From an uncultured Clostridia bacterium (GTDB taxonomy: Bacteria > Bacillota > Clostridia > Christensenellales > CAG-314): DNA of 64,000 nt. The stretch spans positions 194 to 64,193 of the forward strand of contig CANQPI010000009.1 of the NCBI GenBank assembly GCA_947625725.1, written 5' to 3'. A program made the position numbers and the translations under genes. The notes beneath the pieces are model-generated. The model did not search any database, had not been told where the DNA came from, and saw only the letters and a list, made by a program, of their open reading frames with translations. How positions within the stretch are numbered: the first letter of the stretch is position 1; every line of letters starts with the position of its first letter. Shown in pieces: positions 1 to 49,657 of the stretch.

Positions 1-3000
1 ATCATATAATTGACGGGTGTGCAACCGTCCTCTGACTTGTCAAACAATATGGACAACAAGCAAATATCTTTTTCTTCCAATTTAATCATTTCGCTGTCGA
101 TAAGGTCGCCCATGGTCAAGTTTGTTGCCAACGTCGTCATCTTGTCGGCGTTCAATTCGTCAATGCGCAGGTTGGACATTTTTTCGTTCAAGCCTTTTAC
201 TCTGGTACAGGGGTGTTCGCCGGGTACGCCGTGTACGTGTTCGCCGAGATCAGTCGTGCCATAGTCTTTACAGTCGTACCACACGTAACCGAAACACTCA
301 AAGGTGTGCATTTCTTCGCCGCTGTGTTCGTTGGGTTTGTCGCATATCAACTGCGCCTCGAAGTAAATGCCGTGTTTAATGTCGTAAATGTACCAATTGC
401 CGTCCTTGTCTTTGAAAACTTCGTCCCGGTGATGTTTGGTGTCCATATCGGTAAACTTGTGTTCCCATTGTGCGGATTGCTCTTGTTCTTTGGCTTGGCG
501 GTCCACTTCTTTGCGTTGGAAGCCCATTGCAACGCCGACTTCGATACCGTCAAGTTCGCCGTTGAGTTCGCCGATCTTTATTGCGCCGAGTTCACGCAGC
601 AGCGGGTTGGAATTGTTATCCAACTCCAACACTTCGCCGAGTTCGGTGTCGTACACGACGGACGTAATGCCTTTGCTGTCGAGTTCGCTTATTTTGAGGT
701 GCGCCATTCTGCCCAGCAAATTGTTTGCGGGAACATAACTCTTGCCCTCCTCGCTCCATTCGCCGTCGTGCGAGTGCGCGTCGGTACATTCTTGATACCA
801 CAACACGATAAAGCACTCCGCGCCGTGCGTGTGGGCAAGTTTTCCGCAGTCCGCTTCCTCGTCGGTAGAGCCGTGGCAGATTGCGGGGTCGTGTTTATGC
901 TCCGTTTTGGTGCAAGTCAGCAACGCCTCGTACCAAACGCCGCCGTCGTTTAGGGCGTATTCCACCGAGCCGTCCGTGTTTTTGGATTTTATCAAGTCGC
1001 TCACGACGTCGGTGGTGTAGTCCGCTTCGAAAACGGGTCTGCGCTTGAATTGCAACAGATTGCCCAGATACATTTGGTCTATCGCTCCGCTCAGTTCGCC
1101 CAGCGGCGTATCGGCAAGGGACGCAAGGGGCGAGGGTATATTCTCGCCCAACACGTCGCGCATAGTAAATGTCTGAATGGTCTTGTCCAGATCGCCCAAC
1201 TCGCTTACCTTTTTGTTGGCGAGTTTTGCCATCATTCCGACGACTTCCGTTCCGTCTTTGCTCCACTCAAAATTGCCCTCAACGCCGTCGCCCTTGGTGT
1301 ATTGCAACAGATCGCCCAGATACATATTGTCAATGGCGGAATCGAGGTCTTTTATTTGCGTATCCTTGATACTTGCAAGCATAGAGGGAACGCTGTCGCC
1401 CAACACGTCCGACAAGGTGAAGGTTTGTATCGTTTCGTTCAGATCGCCCAACTCGCTTACCTTTTTGTTGGCGAGTTTTGCCATCATGCCGTCAACTACC
1501 GAACCGTCCTCTTTGGTCCAAACGTAGTCGCCGTCCGTTCCGTCGCCCTGCGTGTATCCCAACATAACGCCCAAGTACAGGTCGTTTATGGCTTGTTCCA
1601 TTTCGTTGAGTTTGGCGTTTTCCAGACCTTTCAGTTGCGAGGGAATGGCGTCGCCCATCACTTCGCCGAGGGTAAAGTCCATAACGTCCAACGTGCCGAG
1701 GTCCGCTACGGTGTTGTCGGCAAGTTTTGCCATAACTCCCGTGACGGGTTCGCCCGCCGCGTCGTTCCAGCCGTCGTCCGTTTGGGTGTAGCCGAGCATG
1801 TCGCCCACGCGCAATTGTTCGACTGCGCTTGCCAGGTTGCCGACGGTGGTGTCCTTCAACGCGCGCAGTTGCGAGGGAATGTTTTCTTCGCCGCCCATAA
1901 CCTGACTGAGAGTGAGGTCGTTGATAACGCCGTTTATGTCCGTCAGGTCGTTGATTTGTTTGTTGGCAAGCACTTCGGTCAGATCTTTGACCTCGTCGTC
2001 GCCGTTTTCCCACACAAAGCCGTAGCAACCCGCAACGTTGTGTTCGTGTTCTTCCTTGCCGCAGGTGTAGTCGGGCGCGTCGCCGCAATCTTCGGTGTGA
2101 GCGTGTTGCTTGGTGCAGGTTACTTTGCCTTTGTACCAAGTTTTGCCGTCCATTGACAGCCCGAGTACTTCGCCCTCTCCGCTCAAAATTACGTATTTGG
2201 CAACTTTGTCGCCGTCGTCGTGCGGTTCGGTTTTGTACAGCGGCACAACGTCGCCGTCGGGTTTGGCGATCTCCTCCAAAGAGAAACCCATAAGTTGCCC
2301 GATATACATATTGTCTATTCCGCCGTTTATCAGTTCGCCGATAGTCATATCGGCAATGCTTTCAAACACGCCGCTCATTTCCTGCCCCGCCAACAGTTCG
2401 CGCAGGGGGATATTTGTGAGTTTGTCCATCAAGACGTCGCTGTCGCCGCCCATAAGCATGCCCACCGTAATGTCGGCAAGCGCGGCGTAAATACCGCTCG
2501 CGTCCTCGCCGAGTTCCGTTTTCCACTCGTAGCCGAAACAATCGTCGTTGTGAACGTGTTCCTGTTCGTCAATGGTGCAGGTGAGTTTTGCCTTGTACCA
2601 CACGTCGCCGTCGAGTTTGATGTATTCGTCCGAGGCTTTTCTGACGTTTGTTTCGGGTATCGGCGTGTAATCTTCGGGGTTGGTTACTTCCGTGCGCGAA
2701 AGCGCAAGCAACTGTCCCAAATACAGTCCGTCAAAAACTTCGCCGCCCATCAAGTCGCCGATAGTGTAGTCCACAAAGTTTTCCAGCAGACCGCTTATTT
2801 CCACCGAGTCGCCGAGTAGGTCGCGAATGGGGATATTGGTGAACTTGCTCATCAGCGCGTCCTGATCGCCGCTTGTGAGCATACCGACCGTCACGTCGGC
2901 GATCGCGCCGTAGATACCGCTTGCGGCGTTGTCCTCCGCGTCGTACCAGGCAAAGCCGTAGCAATCGATGTCGTGAGTGTGTTCCGTTTTGCCGCAGGTA

Positions 3001-4049
3001 TAGTTGTCGGGGTCGCCGCACTCCGCCGTGTGAGTGTGTTCCTCGATATTGCAGTTAAACCGCGCCTCGAACGCAACCCCGTCGGTATTGACCAACGCGT
3101 AGTCGCCGTCGTCGTTGCGATAGAGAGTCAAATTGTCGTTTTGGTATTCGGTGTTGTCGTAGTCGGCAAGGTCGTTGATCTCCTTGCGGTGCAGACTGAC
3201 AATATCGCCCAAGTACACGCCGTTGATGATGTCGTCGGGATTGAGGTTGCCCTCGTCGTCGATCATGTCGGCAATGGCGTTGTTTCCGATAAAGGCGTTG
3301 AGGTACTGACTGCTGTCGCCGAGCATGGCGACAATGGGCATTTTGCCCAACTCGTCAAACGCGCCGCCCTCTTTGAATTCTCTCAAAATGTTGCCGTTGA
3401 GCCCGCCGCCGATAAGCGCGCCGAGTTTGGCTTGCCCGACAGCCCACATCAAGGCGTTGTCCTCGGTTTGCTCCAACGGGAGCATGCCCATGGCTACTTC
3501 GGCTATACGCACTTCTTCGAAAACGGTAGCAATGCCGTTTTCGCCCATGAGTTCGGCAATGGTGTGAGCGGACAGTTTGTTCATAAGTTCTTCGGAAAAG
3601 AACGGAATGGGATTTCCCTCCTCGTCCGTGCCGTTGTCCACAAACATATTTACAAGCGCGGGAATAACGCTGACTTTGAGTTTGTTTGTGCCGCCGTCCT
3701 CTGCGAACAAATCGAAAATGGGTATCTCCAATATTTCCGAACGCACCTGTTTGCCGCCGAACAATTGGGACGGGTCGATATTGTAGTACTCGCAAAACTG
3801 TCCCAGCGTAAAGTAATTGCCGTTTTCATCCTGCACGCCTACTTTGTCTTTGTACAGTTTGCTGACGGATTCGGCAATTTCGTAGACGGACATATTTGCC
3901 AGATCGCCCAAAAATTCTCCGCCGCCGGGTATGAATTGACCCGTTTTGGGAATAACCGCCAATCCTATCAACGCTCCGGCGATCGCGCCGAAAAAGAATA
4001 TCACGCCGAAAATCGTTCCAAGGAAAAATGCCAAAATTCTTCTGCCCAT
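1..4049 (-). CDS. giant membrane-anchored repeat protein, C-terminus cut by window edge (>1349 aa)
   Basis: Absent from the ORF track because the frame stays open to the left edge. Hand translation from ATG 4049-4047 gives 1349 uninterrupted codons; no other minus ORF in the track uses this frame. RBS AAGAGG lies 7 nt upstream, inside the 3-prime end of the GDPD gene. N-terminus MGRRILAFFLGTIFGVIFFFGAIAGALIGLAVI looks like a single TM anchor. The rest is acidic, with 84-aa tandem repeats and five Cys/His-rich motifs. Confidence 0.8.
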   Translation of the reverse strand, partial: MGRRILAFFLGTIFGVIFFFGAIAGALIGLAVIPKTGQFIPGGGEFLGDLANMSVYEIAESVSKLYKDKVGVQDENGNYFTLGQFCEYYNIDPSQLFGGKQVRSEILEIPIFDLFAEDGGTNKLKVSVIPALVNMFVDNGTDEEGNPIPFFSEELMNKLSAHTIAELMGENGIATVFEEVRIAEVAMGMLPLEQTEDNALMWAVGQAKLGALIGGGLNGNILREFKEGGAFDELGKMPIVAMLGDSSQYLNAFIGNNAIADMIDDEGNLNPDDIINGVYLGDIVSLHRKEINDLADYDNTEYQNDNLTLYRNDDGDYALVNTDGVAFEARFNCNIEEHTHTAECGDPDNYTCGKTEHTHDIDCYGFAWYDAEDNAASGIYGAIADVTVGMLTSGDQDALMSKFTNIPIRDLLGDSVEISGLLENFVDYTIGDLMGGEVFDGLYLGQLLALSRTEVTNPEDYTPIPETNVRKASDEYIKLDGDVWYKAKLTCTIDEQEHVHNDDCFGYEWKTELGEDASGIYAALADITVGMLMGGDSDVLMDKLTNIPLRELLAGQEMSGVFESIADMTIGELINGGIDNMYIGQLMGFSLEEIAKPDGDVVPLYKTEPHDDGDKVAKYVILSGEGEVLGLSMDGKTWYKGKVTCTKQHAHTEDCGDAPDYTCGKEEHEHNVAGCYGFVWENGDDEVKDLTEVLANKQINDLTDINGVINDLTLSQVMGGEENIPSQLRALKDTTVGNLASAVEQLRVGDMLGYTQTDDGWNDAAGEPVTGVMAKLADNTVADLGTLDVMDFTLGEVMGDAIPSQLKGLENAKLNEMEQAINDLYLGVMLGYTQGDGTDGDYVWTKEDGSVVDGMMAKLANKKVSELGDLNETIQTFTLSDVLGDSVPSMLASIKDTQIKDLDSAIDNMYLGDLLQYTKGDGVEGNFEWSKDGTEVVGMMAKLANKKVSELGDLDKTIQTFTMRDVLGENIPSPLASLADTPLGELSGAIDQMYLGNLLQFKRRPVFEADYTTDVVSDLIKSKNTDGSVEYALNDGGVWYEALLTCTKTEHKHDPAICHGSTDEEADCGKLAHTHGAECFIVLWYQECTDAHSHDGEWSEEGKSYVPANNLLGRMAHLKISELDSKGITSVVYDTELGEVLELDNNSNPLLRELGAIKIGELNGELDGIEVGVAMGFQRKEVDRQAKEQEQSAQWEHKFTDMDTKHHRDEVFKDKDGNWYIYDIKHGIYFEAQLICDKPNEHSGEEMHTFECFGYVWYDCKDYGTTDLGEHVHGVPGEHPCTRVKGLNEKMSNLRIDELNADKMTTLATNLTMGDLIDSEMIKLEEKDICLLSILFDKSEDGCTPVNYM

Positions 4050-4051
4050 AG

Positions 4052-4807
4052 TTACCTCTTGTTTTGTATCAAATCTTTTCTTTCGGGAAGGAAAGAGTCG
4101 AATATCATATTGTCAAAGCAATCTTGCAGTTCTTCGTACTGCGACCGACTCTTTATTGTCCAACATATTATCGGAATTGTTTTTGCCCACTTTTTGAGCG
4201 ATTTGCACCTGCGTATTGTCGCCGCGTCGTAGGCAATGAATTGACTACCGTTCCACTTGCACAGCACCAGATCTCTCAACAGCCACCGTTTGAGCGGAGT
4301 AAACACCCCCGCAAAGGAACAGGACAATTGTCCGCGAACGACTTCGGGCGCGTGTACTTTGAACCAACGCACTATCAAAGGGTTAAACGACTCGATACAG
4401 TAGTGTCCTTTGTAGTTTTTCAACGCGTCGTAGGTTTTTTGTTCGACTTCGCCGATTCGGTCGTGCGTTTTGATCTCCACAACGATATTTACGCCGTTTG
4501 CCGCTTGTAGAAATTGCTCGAAAGTGGGAATGGCGCAATCGGTTTTCAGCAAACGCAACTGTTGCAGTTCGCGCAGAGTTTTGTCGCAAAGTTTGCCGCT
4601 TTCTCCCGTCATGCGTTCGAGAGAGTCGTCGTGGAATACCACCAACACGCCGTCTTTGGTCATTTGAACGTCCGTTTCGATGGCAAAATTGTTTTTTGCC
4701 GCAAGTTCGAATGCGGGCAAGGAGTTTTCCGGAACGACGGCGTTGTCAAACAAGCCTCTGTGCGCCACGTAAACGTCCGTGAGCCACTTGTATTCTTCTC
4801 TGATCAA
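4052..4807 (-). CDS. glycerophosphodiester phosphodiesterase (GDPD family)
   Basis: 251-aa ORF. VAHRGL...ENSLPAFELA...IETDVQMTKDGVLVVFHDD matches recalled GDPD motifs. RBS AAGGAG upstream. Its stop is 2 nt from the start of the downstream giant gene. Confidence 0.85.
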   Translation of the reverse strand: MIREEYKWLTDVYVAHRGLFDNAVVPENSLPAFELAAKNNFAIETDVQMTKDGVLVVFHDDSLERMTGESGKLCDKTLRELQQLRLLKTDCAIPTFEQFLQAANGVNIVVEIKTHDRIGEVEQKTYDALKNYKGHYCIESFNPLIVRWFKVHAPEVVRGQLSCSFAGVFTPLKRWLLRDLVLCKWNGSQFIAYDAATIRRCKSLKKWAKTIPIICWTIKSRSQYEELQDCFDNMIFDSFLPERKDLIQNKR

Positions 4808-5065
4808 ATTTGCTCCTTTTGCGCGACGGGTCGCGCAGTTGACAAAATAATTATTCCCGACAATTATACGCCGATCCGTCGGTATTTCAAACGGAACTAT
4901 TTTGTCAATTATATATTATATATTGAAACATTCCAAATTGCAACAGATTACGGTCAAATTTTTGCGCGCGTTCGGCGCGTAAACAAAAATAACGGAAAAA
5001 CCCCTTTGTCGCAGATATTGTCTGCAAATTGTTTGCGGTTAGTTGCGGCAAACGCTCACAACGTG

Positions 5066-5094
5066 TGGACAAAACGCTGTTTTTATTGTATAAT
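5066..5094 (+). promoter_or_regulatory. sigma-A-type promoter upstream of lepA (TGGACA-17-TATAAT)
   Basis: Hexamers and 17-nt spacer read directly, ~30 nt upstream of the lepA ATG. Confidence 0.45.
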
Positions 5095-5123
5095 TTGACT
5101 ATATCATAACGGAAGCGAACATT

Positions 5124-6923
5124 ATGTCACAACAGCAAACACGAAATTTTTGTATAATAGCGCACATTGACCACGGCAAGAGTACGCTCGCCGACAGGTT
5201 GATGGAGTACACGGGTCAGGTAGCCAAGCGCGATATGGAAGCGCAATTGTTGGACTCTATGGATATCGAACGAGAGCGCGGCATTACCATAAAACTGACT
5301 CCCGTCAGAATGTGTTACCGCAAGGACGGCACGGAGTACACGTTGAACCTTATAGACACGCCCGGACACGTGGATTTCAATTACGAAGTTTCCCGTTCTC
5401 TTGCCGCGTGCGAGGGCGCGTTGCTAGTGGTGGACGCGTCGCAGGGCGTAGAGGCGCAAACTCTTGCCAACTGTTATCTCGCGTTGGAAAACAACCTCGA
5501 AATCATTCCCGTTATCAACAAAATAGACCTGCCCTCGGCGGATATAGAGGGCGCAAAGAAGGAAATAGAGGATACTATCGGCTTGGATACGACAAACGCG
5601 CCGTTGGTTTCCGCCAAAGAGGGTATCAACATCAAAGACGTGTTGGACGCCGTGGTGGATCTCGTGCCGCCGCCGCAAGGGGACGAAACCGCGCCTCTCA
5701 AAGCGCTCATTTTCGACTGTCAGTACGACAATTACAAGGGCGTTATCATTTTTACCCGCATTGTGGACGGCGTTGTGCGCGTAGGCACCTCCGTCAAAAT
5801 GTTTCAGACCGCGGGCAAAACTTTCGACGTGACGGAAGTTGGCATATTCGCCCCCGCAATGCAACCCGTCGATTGCCTCAAAGCGGGCGACGTCGGCTAC
5901 ATTTGCGCAAGTATCAAGACGGTATCCGACACCAAAGTGGGCGACACCGTTACGGACGCCGCTCGCCCTTGCGCGCAACCTTTGCACGGCTACAAGGAAG
6001 TCAAACCTATGGTGTTTTGCGGCATTTACCCCGCTGACGGCAGCAAGTACAACGACCTCAAAGACGCGTTGGAAAAACTCAAACTCAACGACGCCTCTTT
6101 GACTTACGAGCCGGATACGTCCGTTGCGCTGGGTTTCGGTTTCCGTTGCGGTTTTTTGGGATTGTTGCACATGGAGATCATTCAGGAACGGTTGGAACGC
6201 GAGTTCGATCTGGACTTGGTGACGACCGCGCCCAGCGTAATATACAAAGTTTTTACCACGCAAGGCGACGTGCTGTTTATCGACAACCCCACCAAGTTGC
6301 CCGCGCCCACGCTGATCGAACACATAGAAGAACCGATAGTGCGAGCGGAAATTTTTTCCCCGCCCGAATACGTCGGCGACGTTATGGGGCTGTGTCAGGA
6401 CAAGCGCGGCACGTTTATCGACATGACATATCTCGATACCCGTCGGGTCAGACTCACCTACGAGATACCTCTCAACGAAATTATTTACAACTTTTTCGAT
6501 ACGCTCAAATCCCGCACGAGGGGCTATGCAAGTCTGGACTACGAACTGAAAGGCTTTGTGACGGGCAAATTGGTGCGTATGGACATGCTGTTGAACGGCG
6601 AAGTCTGCGACGCGCTGTCCGTTATCGTCAACGAGGAACGCGCCTACGCGCGAGGACGTCAGATGGCGGAAAAACTCAAAGACGCCATTCCCCGTCAGAT
6701 GTTCGAAATACCCATTCAAGCGGCGATCGGCAACAAAATCATTGCCCGCGAAACGGTCAAAGCCCTGCGCAAGGACGTGCTTGCCAAGTGCTACGGCGGC
6801 GACATCACCCGCAAAAAGAAACTGTTGGAAAAGCAAAAAGAGGGCAAAAAACGTATGCGCCAAGTGGGTTCGGTATCCGTTCCGAGCGAGGCGTTTATGT
6901 CCATACTCAAAATCGACGACTGA
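5124..6923 (+). CDS. lepA: translation elongation factor 4 (LepA)
   Basis: 599 aa. N-terminus [20 protein letters not shown] and DTPGHVDF GTPase motifs; full-length EF4-like sequence. Confidence 0.97.
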
Positions 6924-6993
6924 GCGCCAATCGCGCCGCGCGGTTTGTTTCCTTTGGGGACGAGCCTGCGGTCGCGTTGATTAAAGGTAAACT

Positions 6994-7803
6994 ATGCTGA
7001 AAGATTTTGTTACTTACAATGGAATATCCATTCCCGCCGTGGGGTTGGGAACATGGCAAAGCGCGCCGAACGATTGCTACAACGCCGTGCGTTGGGCGTT
7101 GGAGGCAGGCTATCGCCACGTGGACACGGCTTTCGACTATCTCAACGAGCAAGCCGTCGGCAAGGCGTTGCGCGACAGCGGTTTGGGGCGCGACGAATAT
7201 TTTGTCACCACCAAATTGCCCGCCGACGTCAAAGACGCCAAACTGTGCGAACAACGGTTTTTTCAATCTTTGGACAACCTCGGCACGGATTACATAGATC
7301 TGTATCTTATACACGCGCCGTGGCCCTGGGATCAGGTGGGCAAGGATTTTACCGAGGGCAACATAGCGGTGTGGGAGCAACTGCTCGAATTCAAGCAAAA
7401 GGGGCTTGTTCGCGAAGTGGGCGTATCCAATTTCGAAATTTCCCACATTCAAGCAATATCCCGCGCCGTCGGCGTTATGCCCGCCGTCGATCAAATATAC
7501 CATTTTGTGGGAGTGACCGAACCCGAGTTGAGAGAGTACTGTCAACAAAACGGCATAGTCGTGGAGGCATATTCCCCGTTGGGTACGGGCAGACTTTTGT
7601 CCGACGAACGGCTGACGGAGATCGCGCGCGGTTACGGCGTGAGCGTCGCTCAACTTTGCATAAGATATTGCTTGCACAAAAACACTCTCCCTTTGCCCAA
7701 ATCCGTTCACCGCGAACGAATAGCGCAAAATATTTCCCTCGATTTCGATATTTCCGAGCGGGATATCGAATTTTTGGACAGCCTCGAAGGCAAAACAGTA
7801 TGA
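6994..7803 (+). CDS. aldo/keto reductase (2,5-diketo-D-gluconate reductase-like)
   Basis: 269 aa. IPAVGLGTWQ...GYRHVDTAFDY..E..VG, LHAPWP-like and EVGVSNF motifs of the AKR family. Confidence 0.85.
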   Translation: MLKDFVTYNGISIPAVGLGTWQSAPNDCYNAVRWALEAGYRHVDTAFDYLNEQAVGKALRDSGLGRDEYFVTTKLPADVKDAKLCEQRFFQSLDNLGTDYIDLYLIHAPWPWDQVGKDFTEGNIAVWEQLLEFKQKGLVREVGVSNFEISHIQAISRAVGVMPAVDQIYHFVGVTEPELREYCQQNGIVVEAYSPLGTGRLLSDERLTEIARGYGVSVAQLCIRYCLHKNTLPLPKSVHRERIAQNISLDFDISERDIEFLDSLEGKTV

Positions 7804-8918
7804 ACTCACCTTCCGTTTACGTACACATTCCGTTTTGCAAAGCGCGGTGCGGATACTGCGCTTTTTCGTCGTGTACGGACATGTCGTTGACGGAGGACTA
7901 CTTTGCCAAACTTTTTGCCGAAACGGATTACTATGCCGACAGATCCGTCCCCGTTTACACGGTGTATATCGGCGGGGGAACGCCCTCGTCCGTGCCGACC
8001 GAGTACCTGGACGCGCTTTTTGACAGGTTGCGCCGCAATTTCGATTTGTCCCGCGTGCGGGAAATAACGGTGGAGTGCAACCCCGAAAGCGCAGACGACA
8101 AACTGTTCGAGTGCCTTGTGCGCAACGGCGTAAACCGATTGAGTTTCGGTTTGCAAAGCGTCAACGACGCCACCTTGCGCAGGATCGGACGTTTGCACAC
8201 CTACCGACGGTTTTGCGAGGCGTTGCAACGCGCGCGCAGTTTCGGTTTTTGCAACGTCAACGCCGATATTATTATCGGCTTGCCGGAAACTCACGCCGAT
8301 TTTATCCGTTCGGTACGGGAGGCGGCTGCGCTGCCCTTAACGCACCTGAGCATGTACGCGTTGGAACTTCACCCCGGCACTCCGCTGTTCGAGCAAAGCG
8401 GCGGCGTTGACTTTTTCGACGGGGACGAACAGGCGGATATGTACGACGAGGCGGTAGCGGTGTTGGCGCGGCAGGGCTTTGAGCGGTACGAAATTTCCAA
8501 TTTTTGCAAAGAGGGCAACGAGTGCAAACACAACCTCAATTATTGGCGCGAAGGGCGTTACTTTGCGTTCGGCGCGTCGGCAAGCGGTTTCGTGGGCAAC
8601 GCGCGCTATGTAAACCCCCGCTCCGTCAAGGAGTATATGACGACGTCCGTCAGTCAAATGCACTCTTTCGAGCGACAAGTAATCGACCCGAACGAAGAAG
8701 CCAACGAATTTGTAATGCTCGGTCTGCGATTGGAACAGGGCATAAGCGGCAGCGAGTTCGCGGCGCGTTACGGCGAGGACTTTTGGCGGTTTTTCCTCAC
8801 GGCGGACAAGTTGCGCGCCGACGGCTTTTTGATCGCCGACGGCGACCGTATCAAAGTTCCCTCCGACAAATTTTACGTTATCAATTCCATTCTCGCGGAG
8901 TTGTGGAAGTCGCAGTAG
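7800..8918 (+). CDS. hemW: radical SAM heme chaperone HemW / coproporphyrinogen III oxidase-like
   Basis: The real start is MNSPSVYVHIPFCKARCGYCAF (CxxxCxxC radical-SAM motif). The ATG overlaps the AKR stop (ATGA). The 621-aa track ORF from 7053 is an upstream extension out of frame with the AKR gene. Confidence 0.85.
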   Translation: MNSPSVYVHIPFCKARCGYCAFSSCTDMSLTEDYFAKLFAETDYYADRSVPVYTVYIGGGTPSSVPTEYLDALFDRLRRNFDLSRVREITVECNPESADDKLFECLVRNGVNRLSFGLQSVNDATLRRIGRLHTYRRFCEALQRARSFGFCNVNADIIIGLPETHADFIRSVREAAALPLTHLSMYALELHPGTPLFEQSGGVDFFDGDEQADMYDEAVAVLARQGFERYEISNFCKEGNECKHNLNYWREGRYFAFGASASGFVGNARYVNPRSVKEYMTTSVSQMHSFERQVIDPNEEANEFVMLGLRLEQGISGSEFAARYGEDFWRFFLTADKLRADGFLIADGDRIKVPSDKFYVINSILAELWKSQ

Positions 8919-9048
8919 TTTGCCTTTACTCAAATTTTTTTTGTAGATTATGTCCGAATTTGCCGATTTTCAGAATACTATGTCGCACATAGTATATCAA
9001 AAAGCGCAAAAATTGTGCGCAAACCCTCAAATTTCCTCTGTTTTTGAG

Positions 9049-9077
9049 TTGATTTATTGGCGATAGTCTGCTATAAT
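9049..9077 (+). promoter_or_regulatory. sigma-A-type promoter for the LysR gene (TTGATT-17-TATAAT)
   Basis: Hexamers and spacing read directly. Confidence 0.4.
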
Positions 9078-9092
9078 TACATAGTCAAATCT

Positions 9093-9115
9093 TTGTTCAA
9101 CTTCGATTTGAACAA
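9093..9115 (+). promoter_or_regulatory. inverted repeat TTGTTCAA-N7-TTGAACAA, possible LysR autoregulatory operator
   Basis: Perfect 8-bp arms between the promoter and the lysR start. It has T-N11-A-like architecture. Confidence 0.35.
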
Positions 9116-9140
9116 AATTTTTCTAATTTATAGGTGCAAG

Positions 9141-10016
9141 ATGAAGCTTCTACAAATGAGATATTTCCAGACCGTCTGCCGTTACGGCAGCATTACCAAA
9201 GCGGCGGAGGAGTTGTTTGTAAGTCAACCTACGATTTCGTTCTGTCTGAAAGAATTGGAGGACGAATTCGGCGTAAAACTGTTTCACCGCCGTCACAACA
9301 GATTGCAACTAACGGTAGAGGGGCAGTTTTTTTTGGACAAGGTCAACTACATTTTGCAGTCGGTGGATACCCTCACCACGCAGATGAAGGACATGGGCAA
9401 AAATCACAATCGGGTCAAGATCGCCGTCCCCGCAATGATAAGCACTTTTTTGTTCCCGAAGATGTTCGACGCCTACACGCGTATGTATCCCTCCGTGGAG
9501 TTGGAGATGTTGGAAACGGGTTCGTTGCAAGCGCGCAAACTCGTGGACGCCAATTCCGTCGATCTGGGCATCACCATTCAGGACAGTTTTGTGCAGGACG
9601 GCTACAACGTGTTGCCGCTGGTTTCGACGGAACTTGTGTTTTGCGTAAGCAAATCTCACCCGTTGGCAAACCGCAAGCAAATTTCTTTCAAGGAATTGGC
9701 TGAGGAACACATCATCATGTTCAAAGCGGACAGTTACCAAAACATCTTTATCAAGCGCGCTTTTTCCGAGGTGGGCGTCGAGCCGAAAATTTTGCTTTAT
9801 TCATCTCAACTGTACACGATAAAGGAATTTTTGAGTTACGGCAACGCGGGCGCTTTTTTGTACCGTCAAGTGGCGGAAATGGACAAAGACCTTGTTTGTA
9901 TCCCAATGGATAAGGCGATCATTCAGCAAATCGTGCTTATTTGGTCCAAGAGCAGCAGCCTGTATTCCGATTCGGAAAACTTTATTCAATTTGCAAAACA
10001 ATTCAACAAAGAGTAG
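9141..10016 (+). CDS. LysR family transcriptional regulator
   Basis: MKLLQMRYFQTVCRYGSITKAAEELFVSQPTISFCLKELE is a typical LysR wHTH N-terminus. I chose the ATG at 9141 rather than the track start at 9057. Confidence 0.85.
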   Translation: MKLLQMRYFQTVCRYGSITKAAEELFVSQPTISFCLKELEDEFGVKLFHRRHNRLQLTVEGQFFLDKVNYILQSVDTLTTQMKDMGKNHNRVKIAVPAMISTFLFPKMFDAYTRMYPSVELEMLETGSLQARKLVDANSVDLGITIQDSFVQDGYNVLPLVSTELVFCVSKSHPLANRKQISFKELAEEHIIMFKADSYQNIFIKRAFSEVGVEPKILLYSSQLYTIKEFLSYGNAGAFLYRQVAEMDKDLVCIPMDKAIIQQIVLIWSKSSSLYSDSENFIQFAKQFNKE

Positions 10017-10033
10017 TCAAGGAGGAACGACAA

Positions 10034-10570
10034 ATGAACATTTGGCATGATATTGCGCGTAGCAGAATAAATGCCGACGACTTTTACGCCGTCATAGAGA
10101 TCACCAAGGGCAGCAAAATGAAATACGAACTTGACAAGGAAACGGGCTTGTTGGTTTTGGACAGGATATTGTACACGTCAACTCACTATCCCGCAAACTA
10201 CGGTTTTATTCCCCGCACGCTTGCCGACGACGGCGACCCTATGGACGTGTTGGTGCTTTGCTCCGAGCCTTTGCTTGCGCGTAGTCTTGTGCGTTGCTAT
10301 CCTATCGGCGTGATAATCATGAACGACAACGGCTCTTGTGACGAAAAAATTATCGCTATACCCTTTACCGATCCCAATTACAACGGTTACAAATCCATTT
10401 CCGATTTGCCCAAGCACATTTTTGACGAAATGCAACACTTTTTCCGCGTGTACAAGGAGTTGGAAAACAAGCCGACCTCCGTATCGGAAGTACACGACGT
10501 CGAGGACGCCAAACGCATAGTGCAAAAGTCCATTGACGATTACATTGCGCAAATTTTGTCCAAGAGATAG
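10034..10570 (+). CDS. ppa: inorganic pyrophosphatase (family I)
   Basis: MNIWHDI...YAVIEITKGSKMKYELDKETG...YPANYGFIP.TL.DDGDP.DVLVL. RBS AAGGAGG precedes the ATG at 10034. Confidence 0.93.
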   Translation: MNIWHDIARSRINADDFYAVIEITKGSKMKYELDKETGLLVLDRILYTSTHYPANYGFIPRTLADDGDPMDVLVLCSEPLLARSLVRCYPIGVIIMNDNGSCDEKIIAIPFTDPNYNGYKSISDLPKHIFDEMQHFFRVYKELENKPTSVSEVHDVEDAKRIVQKSIDDYIAQILSKR

Positions 10571-10610
10571 TTCGCGCTCGGGCATTGCCCGAAAAAAGGC
10601 TTCGCTTCAA

Positions 10611-10660
10611 ACGCCACACATTTAGTAGGGGAACAAAATCCACTTGTGTGGCGTTTTCGT
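10611..10660 (+). terminator. terminator-like hairpin ACGCCACACA...TGTGTGGCGT + TTTTCGTT (module M1)
   Basis: 10-bp stem plus an inner stem, followed by a T-rich tract. It is the first structure after ppa. The same element recurs at about 11065, 11249, 41139 and 41590. Confidence 0.6.
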
Positions 10661-10945
10661 TGCAGATTATTTTTCGGGCAACACCCTCGCGCCCCTGTGA
10701 ACAATGTCGGAACTCTGATTAGAACTTTTTGTTTTGAAATAAAGTTTGCAACTGTTACAACAAAATAATGCTTTCCATTATAATGGGAAACAATTTCGGC
10801 GACTGCATTAAAAGCCTTCTCTTGGGGACGCAAGAGAAGGGGGACCGTCGTCAGACGGTGGATGAGTTTCGACTGTCAAAGCCGACTAAATATTACAATC
10901 TTTGCCTCTTTGGTTTATTCGAAAAAACATTTTTTTGCAAACGTA

Positions 10946-11012
10946 ATTTGAGTTTTGTCCGCTTGTGCGTTGTGTCCACACGCCCTGCGCTCACTCAAAT
11001 CCCTATTTTTTT
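10946..11012 (+). terminator. terminator-like element ATTTGAGT...ACTCAAAT + T7 (module M8)
   Basis: 8-bp closing stem around a GC-rich interior, then CCCTA and seven T. Copies lie at 41019-41085 and 41473-41536. Confidence 0.55.
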
Positions 11013-11286
11013 GACCAAATATAATTGACTCTCGGGCATTGCCCGAAAAAAGGCTTCGCTTCAAACGCCACACATTTAGTAGGGGAACAAAATCCACTTG
11101 TGTGGCGTTTTCGTTGCAGATTATATAGGTATTCGGGTATTCCGTGTCAAACGGCTTCGCACAGCACTTCGGGTGCTTGCACACAAAACGGCTTCACATA
11201 GTGCCTCGGGCATTGCTCGAAAAAAGGCTTCACTTCAAACGCCACACATTTAGTGAGAGAACACAACTCACTTGTGTGGCGTTTTC

Positions 11287-11570
11287 GTTGCAGATTATTT
11301 TTCGAGCAACACCCTCGGCACTTCCTAGAAGCAAGGATAGTGTTTGTTGCAGATTGTTTTGTAGTGCAACACCCTCAGTGCCCCTTTTACAAGGGCAGGT
11401 GTGTTGCAGATTATATAGGTATTCGGGTATTCCGTGTCAAATGGCTTCGTTTCGGGCTACGCCCTCGTTGCAGATTGTTTGTCACGAAACACCCTCATAC
11501 CTTGCTGGAACAAGGTTGAGTTTGCAACACCCTCGCGCCCCTGTGAACAATGTCGGAACTCTGATTGGAC
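11287..11570 (+). repeat. array of four 55-64-nt sub-repeats (GTTGCAGATT..GCAAC-ACCCTC + variable hairpin)
   Basis: GTTGCAGATT starts at 11287, 11346, 11403 and 11467, giving units of 59, 57, 64 and 55 nt. The array ends in the CACCCTCGCGCCCCTGTGAACAATGTCGGAAC module. Confidence 0.7.
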
Positions 11571-11970
11571 ATCTTGTTTCGAGATAATATTGGTAGCGAA
11601 TGAATTGCTTGCCCTTTGAAAGGATGAAGTGGTATTCGCGTTGTATCAAAACATTGCTTTCCACTATAATGGGAAACGCTGTTTTTCTTTTGCACTCACT
11701 AATTACCGGGTCGGAACTCTGATTAGAACGGTTTGTTTTGAAATAAAGTTTGCAACCGACAAATAATTTCCCCCGTCGAAACACTCGGTGGTACTCGCTA
11801 TTTCGCTAAAACGGTGCTTTCCATTATAATGGGAAGCAAAGTCGGCAACGAAGAAGTAACTTCCTCGGCGGCAATGCGCGCGGTGTTTTTGTTCCGTCCC
11901 GACAAAATTTCGCCCCAAACTTCGCCCGAAACGATTTTTACAATTTGCGCGCAAAATAGCCATCTCCGTA

Positions 11971-11999
11971 TTGACTTGCGCGTAGATTTACTATATACT
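11971..11999 (+). promoter_or_regulatory. sigma-A-type promoter for the DUF2974 operon (TTGACT-17-TATACT)
   Basis: Read directly, ~50 nt upstream of the ATG at 12051. Confidence 0.5.
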
Positions 12000-12050
12000 T
12001 GTGGCATATAGTGATCTATGAGATTGCTACGTAAATTGTGGGGTAAAGTT

Positions 12051-13148
12051 ATGAACATCACATCGTACGTAAAGAAAAATCGCGAAACTTTTGCCGACGC
12101 CCCGTTCAACGAGGTGGACAGTCTTGTTCTGTGCGAACTTTCATATCTTCATTACACTCGGGCGTTTGCGGGCGCGCCGCGCAAAACTCTCCGCGACATG
12201 GCAAAGGACGTCAAAACTCACAACAAAGACACCCTTTTGCCGCTGGAAAACATCGGCTTGCTCAAAGCGATCGCAAACAGCCCCCGTTTTGCCGACGTAA
12301 AGGTGGGGTACTTCCGCGAGCGCAACAGCGTCAAGCGCGAAACGCGTTTTGCCGCAATGACCTTCGAACTCGCGCCCGATCTTCACTATGTGGCGTTTCG
12401 TGGCACGGACATCACTCTGTTGGGGTGGAAAGAGGACTTCAACATGGCGATCGTCAAGGCGATCCCCTCTCAAAAGTTGGCGTTGCAATATTTGCAGACC
12501 GTTGCGTCCAAAGTGGACGGCGACCTGATTTTGGGCGGGCACAGCAAGGGCGGCAATCTGGTGGTGTATGCGGGAGTGTACGCCTCGCCCGAGTTGCAGG
12601 ACAGGTTGCTCGCAATATACGACCATGACGGTCCGGGCTTTCGCACGAACATTTTCGGCGATTCCAAATATCTGCGCGTTGCCGACAAGATACGCAAAAC
12701 CGTTCCGCACGATTCCATTATCGGCATGTTGCTCAACGTCATGGAACGCTACGAGGTGGTGGAGAGCAACAGTTTTTCCGTCATGCAACACAACCCGTTC
12801 AGTTGGCAGATAGAGGACAATCATTTCAAAAAACTCCCCGAAACGGCGCGCACGTCCGTTGCAATGGAACAGACCCTTACTACTTGGATATCCGGTTTGG
12901 ATCGCAAAACCACCCAAAAACTTACAAACGCGATATTCGCCGTGTTGTTCGGCAGCGGCGCGACGACCGTTCCGCAACTGCTTCGCCGTCCTATCGGGCG
13001 TTTACGCAACATGAAGCGGGCTTTTGACGCGCTGGACGACGAGAGCAAGTCGTTGCTCACGGGCAACGGCAAATATTTGATGTCTTTGTGGTTTGCCTCG
13101 ATGAAACACGTGTACGGCATAGTCGCGCCCGAGGTCGATCCGCAATGA
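12051..13148 (+). CDS. DUF2974 (Mbeg1-like) alpha/beta-hydrolase-fold protein, paralog 1
   Basis: MNITSYVKKNRETFADAPFNEVDSLVLCELSYL... with GGHSKGGNL (GxSxG), HDGPGF and VPHDSIIG. The family assignment is from memory. I prefer the ATG at 12051 over the track start at 12018. Confidence 0.78.
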   Translation: MNITSYVKKNRETFADAPFNEVDSLVLCELSYLHYTRAFAGAPRKTLRDMAKDVKTHNKDTLLPLENIGLLKAIANSPRFADVKVGYFRERNSVKRETRFAAMTFELAPDLHYVAFRGTDITLLGWKEDFNMAIVKAIPSQKLALQYLQTVASKVDGDLILGGHSKGGNLVVYAGVYASPELQDRLLAIYDHDGPGFRTNIFGDSKYLRVADKIRKTVPHDSIIGMLLNVMERYEVVESNSFSVMQHNPFSWQIEDNHFKKLPETARTSVAMEQTLTTWISGLDRKTTQKLTNAIFAVLFGSGATTVPQLLRRPIGRLRNMKRAFDALDDESKSLLTGNGKYLMSLWFASMKHVYGIVAPEVDPQ

Positions 13149-14239
13149 ATATCGTAGACTATGTCAAAAAGAACAAAGCCTCCTTTGCCGACAGCCCTCT
13201 CAACGAGGTGGACGGGTTGGTTTTTGCCGAACTCGCCTACTTGAATTTCGGCAGGAGAGCCTCGGGCATGCCCACAAAAACGTTGGGCGAGTTTTCCTCG
13301 AAACCCGACGTCCTTGTAGAGGGAACGCTCTCGTTGTTGAGAAAAAACAACCTGCGTCTGCTCAAAGCGATTGCCGCAAGTCCGCGCTTTGCCCCCGTCG
13401 AGGCGGGGTTTTTCAGAGTGCGCAACAGCGACGAAAAAGACGTGCGTTTTGCCGCAGTCACCTTTCGGATAGGTCAAGGGAAGTATCACGTTTCTTTTCG
13501 CGGGACGGGCGTTTCGCTTGTCGGTTGGCGGGAAAATTTCAAAATGGCTCTTTTGTCCGTTATTCCCACGCAAAGGCTCGCGCTTCGTTACCTCGTTGAC
13601 GTTGCGTCGCGCACGGAGGGCGATTTGACGGTGGGCGGATTGAGCAAAGGGGGAAATTTGTCCGTGTTTTCCGTCACGAACGCCCCCGCGGAAGTCAAAT
13701 CTCGCATACGGTCCGTTTTCAATTACGACGGACCGGGTTTCAAGTTGAGTATTTTCGACGATCCGCGTTACATCGAGATCTCTCCCCGCATACACAAACT
13801 CGTGCCGCACGACTCCATTGTGGGAATGTTGCTCACGTCCTCGCAGGTGTACGACGTGGTGGACAGCAACGGCATTTCCGTCAAACAGCACGATCCCTTT
13901 ACCTGGCAAGTCAAGGACTGCGAAAATTTCAAAAAACTGCCCCAAACTACTCGCAGATCGCAAGTTACCGACGCGGCGGTCACGGAATGGCTGGCGGGAT
14001 TGGACGAGCGCACCCGTCGCAAATTCGTCTACGCCGTTTTTTCCATTGTGGAAGGCAGCGGCGCAAAAGAGGTCGGGGACTTGTTGCGCAAACCCTTGCG
14101 CAAAATACGTCTTATGAAAAAGTCCTACGAACAGTTGGACGCGCCGAGCAAGGAGTTGATCTCGCGAGGCGGCAAGCAACTGCTCTCAATGTGGTTGGGC
14201 GAACTGTTCGCTTTTTCCAAAAAGAAAGCCGAGCAGTGA
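13145..14239 (+). CDS. DUF2974 (Mbeg1-like) alpha/beta-hydrolase-fold protein, paralog 2
   Basis: MNIVDYVKKNKASFADSPLNEVDGLVFAELAYL... with GGLSKGGNL, YDGPGF and VPHDSIVG. The start overlaps the stop of paralog 1 (ATGA). Confidence 0.78.
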   Translation: MNIVDYVKKNKASFADSPLNEVDGLVFAELAYLNFGRRASGMPTKTLGEFSSKPDVLVEGTLSLLRKNNLRLLKAIAASPRFAPVEAGFFRVRNSDEKDVRFAAVTFRIGQGKYHVSFRGTGVSLVGWRENFKMALLSVIPTQRLALRYLVDVASRTEGDLTVGGLSKGGNLSVFSVTNAPAEVKSRIRSVFNYDGPGFKLSIFDDPRYIEISPRIHKLVPHDSIVGMLLTSSQVYDVVDSNGISVKQHDPFTWQVKDCENFKKLPQTTRRSQVTDAAVTEWLAGLDERTRRKFVYAVFSIVEGSGAKEVGDLLRKPLRKIRLMKKSYEQLDAPSKELISRGGKQLLSMWLGELFAFSKKKAEQ

Positions 14240-40805: not shown

Positions 40806-41018
40806 ACCGACCAGGCGCAAGTCGGTTCGGTTGATTACACAACCGACCCCTACGGGGCGCAAGTGCGCCGACTTGGTCGGACTGCTAAGGAAGTCGCTAC
40901 ACGCGCCTTCATTTTCGGGCTCCCACGCAATGCGAGTGTCACTGCGTGGGAGGAGTCGCAACCCCGCCAACCCCCGCAAGGGCTGCAATCTCGGTACACG
41001 CCCGTGATTGCAGGAGGG
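40806..41018 (+). ncRNA. candidate structured RNA: unique GC-rich multi-helix segment leading into repeat locus B
   Basis: Begins right after the yloV stop. Nested helices: CCGACCA(40807-13)/TGGTCGG(40874-80) and GTCGG(40821-25)/CCGAC(40868-72) enclose three hairpins. Further helices: CTCCCACGCA/TGCGTGGGAG (40920-52), CCC-GCAA-GGG (40973-82) and CTGCAATC/GATTGCAG (40983-41014). No ORF. Family unknown. Confidence 0.35.
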
Positions 41019-41085
41019 ATTTGAGTTTTGTCCGCTTGTGCGTTGTATCCACACGCCCAGCGCTCACTCAAATCTCTATTTTTTT
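41019..41085 (+). terminator. M8 terminator-like element, locus B copy 1
   Basis: ATTTGAGT...ACTCAAAT followed by CTCTA and T7. Confidence 0.55.
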
Positions 41086-41472
41086 GACCAGATGCAATTG
41101 GCGCTCGGGTATCCCCTGCAAAAAGGCTTCACTTCAAACGCCACACATTTAGTGAGAGAACGCAACTCACTTGTGTGGCGTTTTTGTTGCAGATTATTTT
41201 GCAGGGGACACCCTCGCTCCCCTGTGAATAAGGTCGGAACTTTGATTGGAATTGTTTGTTTTGAAATAAAGTTTGCAACTGTTACAACAAAACAATGCTT
41301 TCCATTATAATGGGAAACATAGTTGACAACTGCATTAAAAGCCTTCTCTTGGGGACGCAAGAGAAGGGGGACCGTCGCAAGACGGTGGATGAGTTTCGAC
41401 TGTCAAAGCCGTCTAGATATTACAATTATTGCCTCTTGGGTTTATTTGATAAAACAGTTTTTTGCAGACGTG

Positions 41473-41536
41473 ATTTGAGTTTTCGCTTGTGCACTGTGTC
41501 CACGCGCCCTGCGCTCACTCAAATCTCTATTTTTTT
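41473..41536 (+). terminator. M8 terminator-like element, locus B copy 2
   Basis: ATTTGAGT...ACTCAAAT followed by T7. The interior has a 3-nt deletion and substitutions relative to the other copies. Confidence 0.55.
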
Positions 41537-41773
41537 GACCAGATGCAATTGGTACTCGGGAATCCCCTGCAAAAAGGCTTCACTTCAAACGCCACACATT
41601 TAGTGAGGGAACACAACTCACTTGTGTGGCGTTTTTGTTGCAGATTATATAGGTATTCGGGTATTCCGTGTCAAACGGCTTCACACAGCACTTTGGGTGC
41701 TTGCACACAAAACGGCTTCACATAGTGCCTCGGGCATTGCTCGAAAAAAGGCTTCGCTTCGGGCTACGCCCTC

Positions 41774-41993
41774 GTTGCAGATTATTTTTCGAGCAACACC
41801 CTCGGCACTCCCTTGAAGCAAGGATAATGCTTGTTGCAGATTGTTTTGTTGTACAACACCCTCAGTGCCCCTTTTACAAGGGCAAGTGTGTTGTAGATTG
41901 TTTGTTACGAAACACCCTCATACCTCGGTGGAACAAGGTTGAGTTTGCAACACCCTTGCGCTTGTGTGAAAAAGGTCGGAACTATGATTGGAC
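41774..41993 (+). repeat. array of three 55-59-nt sub-repeats (locus B version)
   Basis: GTTGCAGATT at 41774 and 41833, GTTGTAGATT at 41890. The 64-nt third unit of locus A is absent here. Confidence 0.7.
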
Positions 41994-42341
41994 AACTTGT
42001 ACCGTAACAAGGTTGCTAACTGTGAGAGGGCTTACCCTTTGAGGACATGAAGTGGTATTTGCAACTAACAAAACAATGCTTTCCATTATAATGGGAAACA
42101 ACGTCGGCGACTGCATTAAAAGCCTTCTCTTGGGGACGCAAGAGAAGGGGGACCGTCGTCAGACGGTGGATGAGTTTCGACTGTCAAAGCCGACTAAATA
42201 TTACGATCATTGCCTCTTGCGTTTATTTGATAAAGTTGTGCAATACCCTCGCACCCGTGTGAACAAGGTCGTACATTTTTGAAACTGCGCTCGCATATCC
42301 CTCGCAAAGTTGAATTTTACATTGATTTTACATATCGGACG

Positions 42342-42746: not shown

Positions 42747-42793
42747 ATACGCACTCCGTGTACATTATAATATACTTGATCTGAAAATTCAAC

Positions 42794-42827
42794 ATTGTAC
42801 GCTTGATTTTATTGTACGCCTGATTTT
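42794..42827 (+). repeat. tandem direct repeat 2 x 17 nt (ATTGTACGCYTGATTTT)
   Basis: Read directly: 42794-42810 and 42811-42827 differ at one position. Lies in the divergent intergenic region. Confidence 0.7.
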
Positions 42828-43029
42828 AGACCTCGCCGTCGCATGCTTGCAATATTTTTGCCACGCTTGCCGCGCAATTCGGTATATCTTGTTAGCGAAA
42901 AAAGCGGTGCGCTCGTCAAGACAAACTCACGCCTAAATGCCAATTGACTTTTTGACCGTTTGATTTTTCTGTGCGTTTATGATATGATGATTGTACGATA
43001 AGTGTTAATTTAGCGGGGATAATTAAAGA

Positions 43030-49614: not shown

Positions 49615-49646
49615 GAGAGCGCCGAATTTTTCGGCGCTCTCTTTTT
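49615..49646 (+). terminator. intrinsic terminator (GAGAGCGCCGAA-TTT-TTCGGCGCTCTC + T5)
   Basis: 12-bp perfect stem followed by a T-run. Confidence 0.75.
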
Positions 49647-49657
49647 ACGCTCTACGT

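Follow-up and report, generated by a model that had tools for sequence, protein, structure and literature searches.

Nested and covarying hairpin repeats in an intergenic array downstream of ppa in an uncultured Clostridia bacterium

Complex families of intergenic repeats have been well studied in a few cultured pathogens, and they are almost unknown in uncultured Firmicutes of the gut or rumen type. In pneumococci, modular BOX elements and terminator-like SPRITE repeats at the 3' ends of genes are found, and the repeats can be inserted into one another (PMC3049150). REPINs show compensatory changes and form ordered tandem clusters of up to about 700 bp, some of which arose by insertion into existing elements (PMC3116915). 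In Correia elements, promoters are present and the RNA hairpins undergo processing (PMC3184786). Here we describe an array of hairpin repeats, locus A (positions 10571-11850), in a 64,000-nucleotide stretch of DNA (the window) from an uncultured Clostridia bacterium of the CAG-314 lineage (GenBank assembly GCA_947625725.1, contig CANQPI010000009.1, positions 194 to 64,193). A first-pass annotation, made from the sequence alone, had described this locus as a set of recurring modules (M1 to M8) without a credible open reading frame (ORF). The array consists of long hairpins nested in one another, with arms that covary; copies are dispersed in the genome and restricted to a single lineage. The family works like BOX, BIME and REPIN clusters and is a member of no described family. 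With moderate confidence, we take locus A to be an array of a lineage-specific, non-coding, mosaic family of hairpin-repeat DNA, which is spread by recombination or by an enzyme acting in trans and serves incidentally as a terminator at the ends of genes.

The long hairpin and the nested stack of locus A

Locus A fills the gap between ppa (10034-10570, + strand; Pfam family Pyrophosphatase) and the first Mbeg1-like (DUF2974) gene, which starts at about 12018 on the + strand. The repeat similarity stops near 11850. The direct repeats of locus A, located by repeat finding and self-BLAST, are spaced 454 nt start to start, and those of a second array (locus B, 40806-42310) are spaced 451 nt; every repeat copy in the two loci is on the + strand. 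Self-BLAST aligns positions 10571-11412 with positions 41098-41899 of locus B at 85.5% identity over 842 nt, nested part included, and so bears out the earlier remark that the same architecture recurs 30 kb away. Because this alignment spans the second unit of locus A, that unit is itself part of a duplicated block. All of the motifs listed in the first-pass annotation are present in the sequence at their places, and a fuzzy module scan finds them in an order that is constant everywhere: M8 - (M1, long hairpin, M2) - M3 - M4 - M5 - M6 - M8. Locus A contains M6 and M8 once each and M5 three times.

Positions 40887-43032 of the window are 100% identical to an independent short-read contig from another sample (L012), so the arrays are real sequence and not an artefact of assembly. 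Other short-read contigs end on entering the repeats, and the arrays break short-read assemblies at housekeeping genes.

The long hairpin element (H) and its nested copies in locus A comprise the following features.

10574-10692, + strand: H1, a complete long hairpin (M1 plus M2 of the first-pass annotation), defined by sequence, fold, arm complementarity and covariation; its parts, 5' to 3', are the outer helix (GCGC/GCGC), CTCGGGCA, a 12-nt arm (TTGCCCGAAAAA), GGCTTCGC, core T, GTTGCAGATT, the second arm (TTTTTCGGGCAA) and CACCCTC
10611-10620 and 10645-10654, + strand: the two strands (ACGCCACACA and TGTGTGGCGT) of the terminator-like core hairpin T of H1, followed by TTTTCGTT
11031-11124, + strand: start of the second unit, with left half L0, a T hairpin and GTTGCAGATTAT; 94% identical to 10554-10670
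11125-11534, + strand: nested stack, with halves listed from the sequence and arms that pair in nesting order, as also seen in the fold
11125-11160, 11161-11197 and 11198-11233, + strand: left halves L1, L2 and L3 of the nested stack
11234-11286, + strand: core T hairpin of the nested stack
11287-11316, 11346-11376 and 11403-11414, + strand: right halves R3 and R2 and the start of R1, with a small S hairpin after each
11415-11496, + strand: complete small H with a short core, followed by an S hairpin and a right-half remnant (TTTGCAACACCCTC) that extends to 11534

M1 forms the 5' half and M2 the 3' half of a single long hairpin, H, which measures about 120 nt. Their motifs are present as had been reported, and it is only their standing as separate modules that falls. 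H1 begins 4 nt past the stop codon of ppa. Its arms are complementary at 12 of 12 positions, and the 125-nt hairpin, folded alone, has a minimum free energy (MFE) of -55.2 kcal/mol (z -6.3). In general, H reads, 5' to 3', outer strand, (C/T)TCGGGYA, an arm of 12-13 nt, GGCTTCRC, apex, GTTGCAGATT, complementary arm, CACCCTC and outer strand. The apex has three forms. It can be the T hairpin (ACGCCACACA..TGTGTGGCGT, then UUUUCGUU; MFE -22.6 kcal/mol, z -4.7), a short hairpin (GGGC-TAC-GCCC), or another complete tier. Each tier contains four helices, namely a variable outer helix, GGG/CCC, the variable 12-bp arm, and a short GCUUCR/YGUUGC helix with two U.U (T.T) mismatches. The YA/CA internal loop between GGG/CCC and the arms and an AGAUU(R) bulge on the 3' strand are constant in every tier.

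The second unit, which had been considered expanded and rearranged relative to a full first unit of 454 nt, is an orderly, onion-like nest of hairpin tiers; the spacing of 454 nt stands. At its start, the right arm of L0 is replaced by the nested stack that comes next. In this stack, three left halves with a period of about 36 nt are followed by T and then by the three right halves, which recur about every 58 nt and each have a small hairpin of the S type (CCTTG..CAAGG) behind them. RNAfold predicts a nested rod for positions 11031-11600, with an MFE of -216 kcal/mol and a z-score of -8.4, compared to -3.5 for the first unit of locus A; the folding thus exceeds by a wide margin what chance would give. 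The same nested layout is found in locus B at 41649-41955, and the z-score of this counterpart is -5.4.

The paired halves of the tiers covary. Ten tiers were aligned over 21 pairs, with the partners set by nesting order and complementarity not used. Standard pairs are present in 84.8% of the cells, compared to 70.2% in shuffles and 39-54% with the partners slid, and the covariation score of 0.370 (0.134 in shuffles) was reached by none of the 500 shuffles. Both sides have changed in 12 of the 21 pairs; as the tier copies are mutually related, the independent events number about five arm versions rather than ten. Watson-Crick pairs fill 174 of the 210 cells, G.T pairs 4, and A.C combinations 7. 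At least five versions of the arm exist, each with its own complement (TTGCCCGAAAAA/TTTTTCGGGCAA, TTGCTCGAAAAA/TTTTTCGAGCAA, TCCCCTGCAAAA/TTTTGCAGGGGA, TTGCACACAAAAC/GTTTTGTAGTGCAA and TTCCGTGTCAAAY/GTTTGTCACGAAA). The outer helix likewise covaries (GCGC/GCGC, AGTGCC/GGCACT, GCAC/GTGC and AGGTAT/ATACCT). Of the 14 pairings of the R and Y positions in the third helix, formed by left GCUUCR and right YGUUGC, 11 are G-C or A-T, two are mismatched and one is a wobble. Two copies, one on contig L017 and one on contig L016 (see below), join non-matching halves, the left and right belonging to different arm versions. The folds show no strand preference: the MFE is similar on both strands, wobble pairs are rare, and two hairpins have loops of 3 nt.

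Other modules, loci and relatives

The remaining modules of locus A are as follows.

10689-10725, + strand: M3, a small S-type hairpin (CCCCTGTGAACAATG) followed by GTCGGAACTCTGATTAGAAC; copies at 11535-11571, 11710-11729, 41216-41252 and 41956-41990
10731-10761, + strand: M4 (GTTTTGAAATAAAGTTTGCAACTGTTACAAC); copies at 11735-11756 and 41258-41288
10769-10791, + strand: M5, a palindromic hairpin (TGCTTTCCATTATAATGGGAAAC), as also seen in the fold; five copies in the window
10795-10896, + strand: M6 core with two perfect hairpins, GCCTTCTCTT..AAGAGAAGG and ACCGTC..GACGGT; MFE -26.4 kcal/mol, z -4.2
10946-11016, + strand: M8, a hairpin (ATTTGAGT..ACTCAAAT) followed by CCCTA and T7; MFE -16.0 kcal/mol, z -2.7; copies at 41019-41089 and 41473-41540
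11535-11850, + strand: tail of locus A, with M3 (11535-11571), a variant spacer, M5 (11655-11677), M3 and M4 (11710-11756), extra hairpins and a last M5 (11815-11837)

Variant copies of M4 carry extra hairpins of 43 to about 170 nt, inserted after GCAACTG. The direct repeat CGACTG stands on either side of the M6 core, inside a would-be GTCGGC..GCCGAC hairpin. Hairpins that sit in the loops of others are therefore a recurrent feature of the modules. Short direct repeats flank some of the filled variants, CGACTG for the M6 core, ATAGTG for tier 3 plus S, and TTGCAACT for the M4 insert; they can be read equally as target duplications or as deletion end-points. M5 has a stem of 9 bp, including a conserved T.G pair, and the loop TTATAA. 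It is the most conserved module, with an identity of 1.00 across the unit copies, followed by the M6 core (0.95-1.00), compared to 0.80-0.93 for the rest of the unit. The substitutions between copies of M6 are all located outside the stems, in loops and linkers.

The 1.3 kb of locus A is free of credible ORFs, as had been proposed, with no Pfam match and no homologues outside the repeats. Mechanical ORFs in the locus reach 147 amino acids (aa); ten such ORFs of loci A and B gave no match in Pfam, and the 147-aa ORF across the nested part has 0 matches among 1.84 billion representatives. For an 86-aa ORF that starts in M5, the matches among 5.8 billion amount to just 4 clusters; each is a further copy of the repeat, 57-76 aa long and with a C-terminus that differs. 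No ribosome-binding site is present in the sequence before the ATG of this ORF. A protein-coding gene was rejected on these grounds. At the gathering score, Rfam 15 recognizes two tRNAs only in the whole window (43.8-44.0 kb), and the best matches to loci A and B in a search to E = 10 have 13-20 bits and E = 0.6-9, far under the family thresholds. Together with a Pfam scan of the window, these searches agree with the earlier view that no Rfam family, insertion sequence (IS) element or CRISPR system is recognizable here.

Three loci were found in the window (A, B and C), and no others were detected by nhmmer.

40806-41018, + strand: M0, a G+C-rich module of several hairpins that opens locus B; the fold has three hairpins within an outer stem of 11 bp, then two others
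41019-42310, + strand: remainder of locus B, with M8, H (41098-41216), M3 to M6, M8, L0 plus T, nested stack (41649-41955), M3, M5, M6 (42100-42234), and right-half and left-half remnants
49655-49835, + strand: locus C, a decayed and internally deleted copy with a right half, an S hairpin, a degenerate M5 and the end of M8 (E = 1.5e-5)

M0 starts right at the stop codon of fakA. A second copy lies directly after prs on a contig of the same species (L016, positions 1497-1695), and four pairs have changed on both sides between the two copies. The shape of M0 resembles a cloverleaf; a tRNA was rejected, as ARAGORN detects only the two real tRNAs and M0 has no Rfam match. The arms of H in locus B are TCCCCTGCAAAA and TTTTGCAGGGGA. 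The array of locus C is located downstream of an ordinary terminator at 49616-49647. This decayed copy, the pairing of M1 with M2, the covariation of the arms and the nested tiers go beyond the first-pass annotation.

Outside the window, two arrays flank prs on L016, and two further contigs carry copies. In all, locus A is one of at least five copies of the array. Samples that carry the organism are ERZ27248994, ERZ27249265, ERZ27249481, ERZ27249483 and DRR849000. The ends of the arrays vary by locus: they start with H (A), M0 (B and L016) or a right half (C), and they end with M5, a left-half remnant or M8. At ppa, fakA and prs, the distance from the stop codon to the start of the array is 0-7 nt, and gene and array run in the same direction. 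The GC skew is positive, and the arrays therefore point with the leading strand and with most genes. One of the contigs (L017, positions 1-804, sample ERZ27259946) contains two arrays head to head, in which the nested part, in reverse complement, adjoins an M3-M8 unit in forward orientation. The right flank of this contig is similar to that of locus C, and the inverted arrangement may be real or a chimera of the assembler. On another contig (L009), ppa is joined directly to the H of the second unit, as if the first 454-nt unit were missing (compare positions 10670 and 11124 of the window). The junction is preceded by 97 identical bases, which leave more than one path open to the assembler, and we therefore do not count it as a change in copy number.

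In a strain of the same species (98.5% identical over 3.2 kb), H is found at the same place after ppa with a different version of the arm (ATCCCTCGCAAAAA), which is also present at the end of locus B and in L017. In related species (FakA 94-96% identical, DNA 72-84%), fakA and yjbR are separated by a 156-nt spacer with an ordinary two-way terminator. In the same relatives, ppa is followed by an ordinary terminator, and trkH-trkA and a two-component system separate this terminator from the Mbeg1-like gene; the repeat modules are absent. In one relative (L024; GCA_947625115.1, contig CANQND010000012.1, positions 6537-12191), trkH, trkA and the genes of a histidine kinase and a response regulator form a 5.6-kb block that separates ppa from the Mbeg1-like gene. 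This block is missing from positions 10571-12017 of the window, where the repeat array occupies the gap. The arrays coincide here with a difference in gene content.

A scan with the 21-mer of M5 over one genome for each of 185,579 species and the JGI metagenomes gave chance matches only (a PBP2-like gene, unrelated phyla); this was a single strict pattern, for which a looser pattern or a second module would have served better. Plasmids and phages gave no match by BLAST in distant mode. In viral contigs, the pattern GGCTTCRC..GTTGCAGATT has 74 matches, about the number estimated from the pattern and the size of the collection, and none of them has complementary arms or the outer motifs. The narrow distribution, the module-free relatives, the different arm version in a strain of the same species and the mismatched halves indicate a family that is young, fast-changing and lineage-restricted, with copies that exchange sequence.

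Comparison with described families and possible origins

BOX elements, both those of Streptococcus pneumoniae and the BOX type of Streptococcus suis, are among the closest described systems. They are intergenic repeats of Firmicutes in which several modules are combined in set permutations downstream of genes, sometimes with one element inserted into another (PMC3049150, PMC3184786). BOX is also a composite with 5' and 3' modules that pair around variable internal ones; here the halves pair around T, a short core or further tiers. The T core is similar to SPRITE, which lies close to the 3' ends of coding sequences and folds into a long hairpin resembling a terminator, with a U-rich tract (PMC3049150). 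In comparison to BOX, the unit here is about 450 nt with at least nine modules, and the halves follow the order L-L-L...R-R-R, with covarying arms specific to each tier, instead of boxA-(boxB)n-boxC. We recognize no sequence similarity to BOX, a statement that involves no comparison to BOX models.

REP, BIME and REPIN repeats share with locus A the intergenic hairpins, the mosaic clusters, compensatory changes that keep the hairpins, and an abundance that differs sharply between close relatives (PMC3116915, PMC3184786). However, a REPIN is formed by two inverted copies of one REP of 16-20 nt, whereas the left (CTCGGGYA, GGCTTCRC) and right (GTTGCAGATT, CACCCTC) motifs of H differ and only the arms are complementary. 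Moreover, no RAYT gene is present within 64 kb, and the host is an organism of the Firmicute type, with a gene content that suggests Clostridia. Neisserial intergenic mosaic elements (NIMEs), like the arrays here, consist of different modules of 50-150 bp separated by a short palindrome. The neisserial palindrome dRS3 is ATTCCC-N8-GGGAAT, and M5 is TTTCCA-TTATAA-TGGGAA. NIMEs and Correia elements nevertheless belong to another phylum and have no known sequence relation to the repeats here, and we know of no description of a nested tier structure for either of them. The nest of tiers, with arms specific to each tier and invariant junction loops, is more regular than BOX, BIME or REPIN clusters. 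No terminal inverted repeats or target duplications can be defined for the arrays.

Of the roles suggested in the first-pass annotation, a BOX- or BIME-like mosaic element and a non-autonomous mobile element fit best: the repeats are dispersed, mosaic and lineage-restricted, one copy is decayed, and the orthologous sites in relatives are empty. Together, H and the modules S, M3, M4, M5, M6, M8 and M0 make up a composite unit of about 450 nt, which has undergone tandem duplication. In the explanation that we favour, the modules would multiply as selfish or neutral DNA, and the formation of hairpins in single-stranded DNA or in a transcript would be what is kept. New tiers may arise by insertion of one element into the apex of another, and recombination between dispersed copies could copy, convert or truncate whole arrays. 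The arrays begin at a stop codon or a few bases past it and run in the direction of the gene before them; that gene is therefore probably terminated, and its 3' end protected, by their T-tract hairpins. It is also probable that rearrangements take place at the arrays. The arrays supply the sole terminator-like structures after ppa, fakA and prs.

Several observations weigh against this explanation. The genes in the 64 kb include no mobilising enzyme. In a Pfam scan of about 45 ORFs of the window, all those with matches are housekeeping genes, including lepA, ppa, tyrS, pcrA, ligA, priA, def, fmt, fakA, FTHFS, engA and plsY, and no transposase, integrase, reverse transcriptase or cas gene was found. 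The element is not delimited by common terminal inverted repeats or clear target-site duplications, and deletions would account equally well for the short direct repeats. With only 72-84% DNA identity, the relatives that supply the empty sites show restriction to a lineage and not recent insertion. Conservation is highest in M5 and the M6 core, with the changes in M6 outside the stems, as expected of a functional RNA or of a protein-binding site. Finally, the loops and the bulge are identical in each tier, as if they were a recognition site used repeatedly, either by an RNA-binding protein or by a DNA enzyme.

A more specific form of the favoured explanation is possible, if doubtful, in which H is a hairpin transposon of single-stranded DNA, moved in trans by an IS200/IS605 TnpA-type, RAYT-type or other structure-specific recombinase, encoded elsewhere in the genome, into the apices of resident hairpins. 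In its favour, the bulge and the mismatches are conserved inside helices that otherwise covary, the pairs are almost all Watson-Crick, and loops of 3 nt are present. The single orientation of the copies on the leading strand (positive GC skew) and the nesting of complete tiers in one another also fit, and REPINs combine compensatory changes, tandem clusters and insertion into existing copies (PMC3116915). The left flank of each tier is complementary to its right flank, which could reflect the choice of targets by base pairing, but this complementarity between flank and inner element rests on three independent tiers only. The window contains no gene for such an enzyme, the conserved left and right motifs are not inverted copies, unlike those of REPIN, and the ends of the arrays are inconstant, with no conserved cleavage tetranucleotide.

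It is unlikely that the repeats contain multi-copy genes for structured small RNAs (sRNAs), with the other modules being terminators and hitch-hiking repeats. In one form of this proposal, M5 would provide the -10 promoter element and the M6 core would be transcribed on the + strand, ending at M8 or T. M5 contains a perfect TATAAT that is 100% conserved, and the 60-80 nt that come next are 95-100% conserved, compared to 80-93% for the rest of the unit. The few substitutions in M6 are confined to loops and linkers of very stable hairpins (-26.4 kcal/mol, z -4.2), and the T.G pair kept in M5 is a wobble on the + strand only. However, the -35 box of M5 is poor (TTACAA, 3/6, with an 18-nt spacer) and was not called by the promoter scan, in which no candidate inside the unit passes, and M5 is also found without M6, at 11655 and 11815. 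In a second form, the M6 core would be an RNA of about 80 nt from the - strand, with C-rich loops and a terminator of its own. Such an RNA would resemble the RsaE/RoxS-type or LhrC-type regulators, which bind ribosome-binding sites. Read on the - strand, the first hairpin of M6 is a terminator-like site in the scan (10840-10815) with C-rich loops; the loop is GCGUCCCC and the linker is UCCCCC, as read from the sequence. On this strand the extended -10 element is weak, missing in the L016 copies and altered in one copy of locus B. For both forms, no Rfam relative was found even at E = 10, and the repeats, decayed copies included, are restricted to one species-level lineage.

Three covarying helices per tier, invariant loops and the high conservation of M5 and of the M6 core could also mean that every tier presents the same three-dimensional site, made of the YA/CA loop, the AGAUU bulge and the helix with two U.U pairs. 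In that case, the arrays would be genes for a new kind of large, rod-shaped modular RNA that scaffolds several copies of one protein, or substrates of an undescribed system of hairpin-into-hairpin DNA insertion that selects its targets by base pairing. We regard this as quite unlikely.

Still less likely is one large ornate RNA per array, or a long structured 3' untranslated region, in which a rod of about 75-90 bp would carry repeated protein sites and the arms would keep the register. Such an RNA would agree with the very strong predicted fold (z -8.4), with covariation that extends to M0 and, in each tier, to three helices, and with loops conserved from tier to tier. It would also agree with the position of the arrays, which begin at stop codons and run in the direction of the preceding gene. 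Against it, the module that comes first behind ppa is already a strong terminator-like hairpin with a U-tract, and read-through into the rest of the array would be limited as a result. The two strands fold equally well with few wobble pairs, and the arrays are missing from related species at both orthologous sites. Their composition and ends vary by locus, with tiers present or absent, unlike a defined RNA.

A CRISPR array, integron attC sites, a type III toxin-antitoxin repeat array, a retron and a diversity-generating element were rejected. In a rhythm similar to that of CRISPR, right halves of 30-31 nt alternate with segments of 26-29 nt every 57-59 nt, but the repeats are non-identical (they vary at 3-5 central positions), the apparent spacers are hairpins shared among A, B and L017 (82-94% identical between loci), a complementary left half is located upstream, and no cas genes are present in the 64 kb. 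The first-pass annotation had recognized no miniature inverted-repeat transposable element either, and this agrees with the lack of constant terminal inverted repeats; the array ends vary, and the ends of H (CTCGGGCA and CACCCTC) share only GGG. As integron attC sites, GTTGCAG and GGGCAAC/GAGCAAC misfit the R'' (RYYYAAC) and R' (GTTRRRY) motifs and are located at the inner side of the arms, with no integrase in the window. The defining features of a type III toxin-antitoxin repeat array, a retron or a diversity-generating element are absent, as is a partner gene in the 64 kb.

The arrays offer a clean test case for whether such repeats are kept as single-stranded DNA, as RNA, or by a dedicated enzyme.

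Neighbouring genes and other repeats

Directly downstream of locus A are two tandem Mbeg1-like (DUF2974) paralogues, at 12018-13148 and 13088-14239. A good sigma-70-like promoter (TTGACT-17-TATACT), separate from the repeats, is located at 11971-11999.

In the relative with the trk block (L024), the A+T-rich spacer that precedes trkH contains an unrelated tandem duplication (about 190 nt; 6600-7000) particular to this relative. It is followed by a G+C-rich hairpin region (7060-7130) that might be a leader element. Between fakA and yjbR, two strains of the related species (L020, positions 6550-8343, and L021, positions 2453-4247) carry a helix-turn-helix-type regulator (68 aa, - strand) and a 322-aa ORF without a Pfam family, and three others (L019, L022 and L023) have only the 156-nt spacer.

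Two further regions of the window contain repeats of other kinds. A gene-free spacer of 625 nt at 55514-56138 carries a different short repeat (GTGTAGTGCAAAAT..) three times and a pair of 41-nt sequences at 55717 and 56004 that are 88% identical, with no Rfam match at E = 1. At 213-5098, five consecutive ORFs on the + strand (246, 368, 199, 419 and 194 aa) have no Pfam family, and the 368-aa ORF contains an internal repeat of 134 nt (1123-1256 and 1375-1508, 79% identical).

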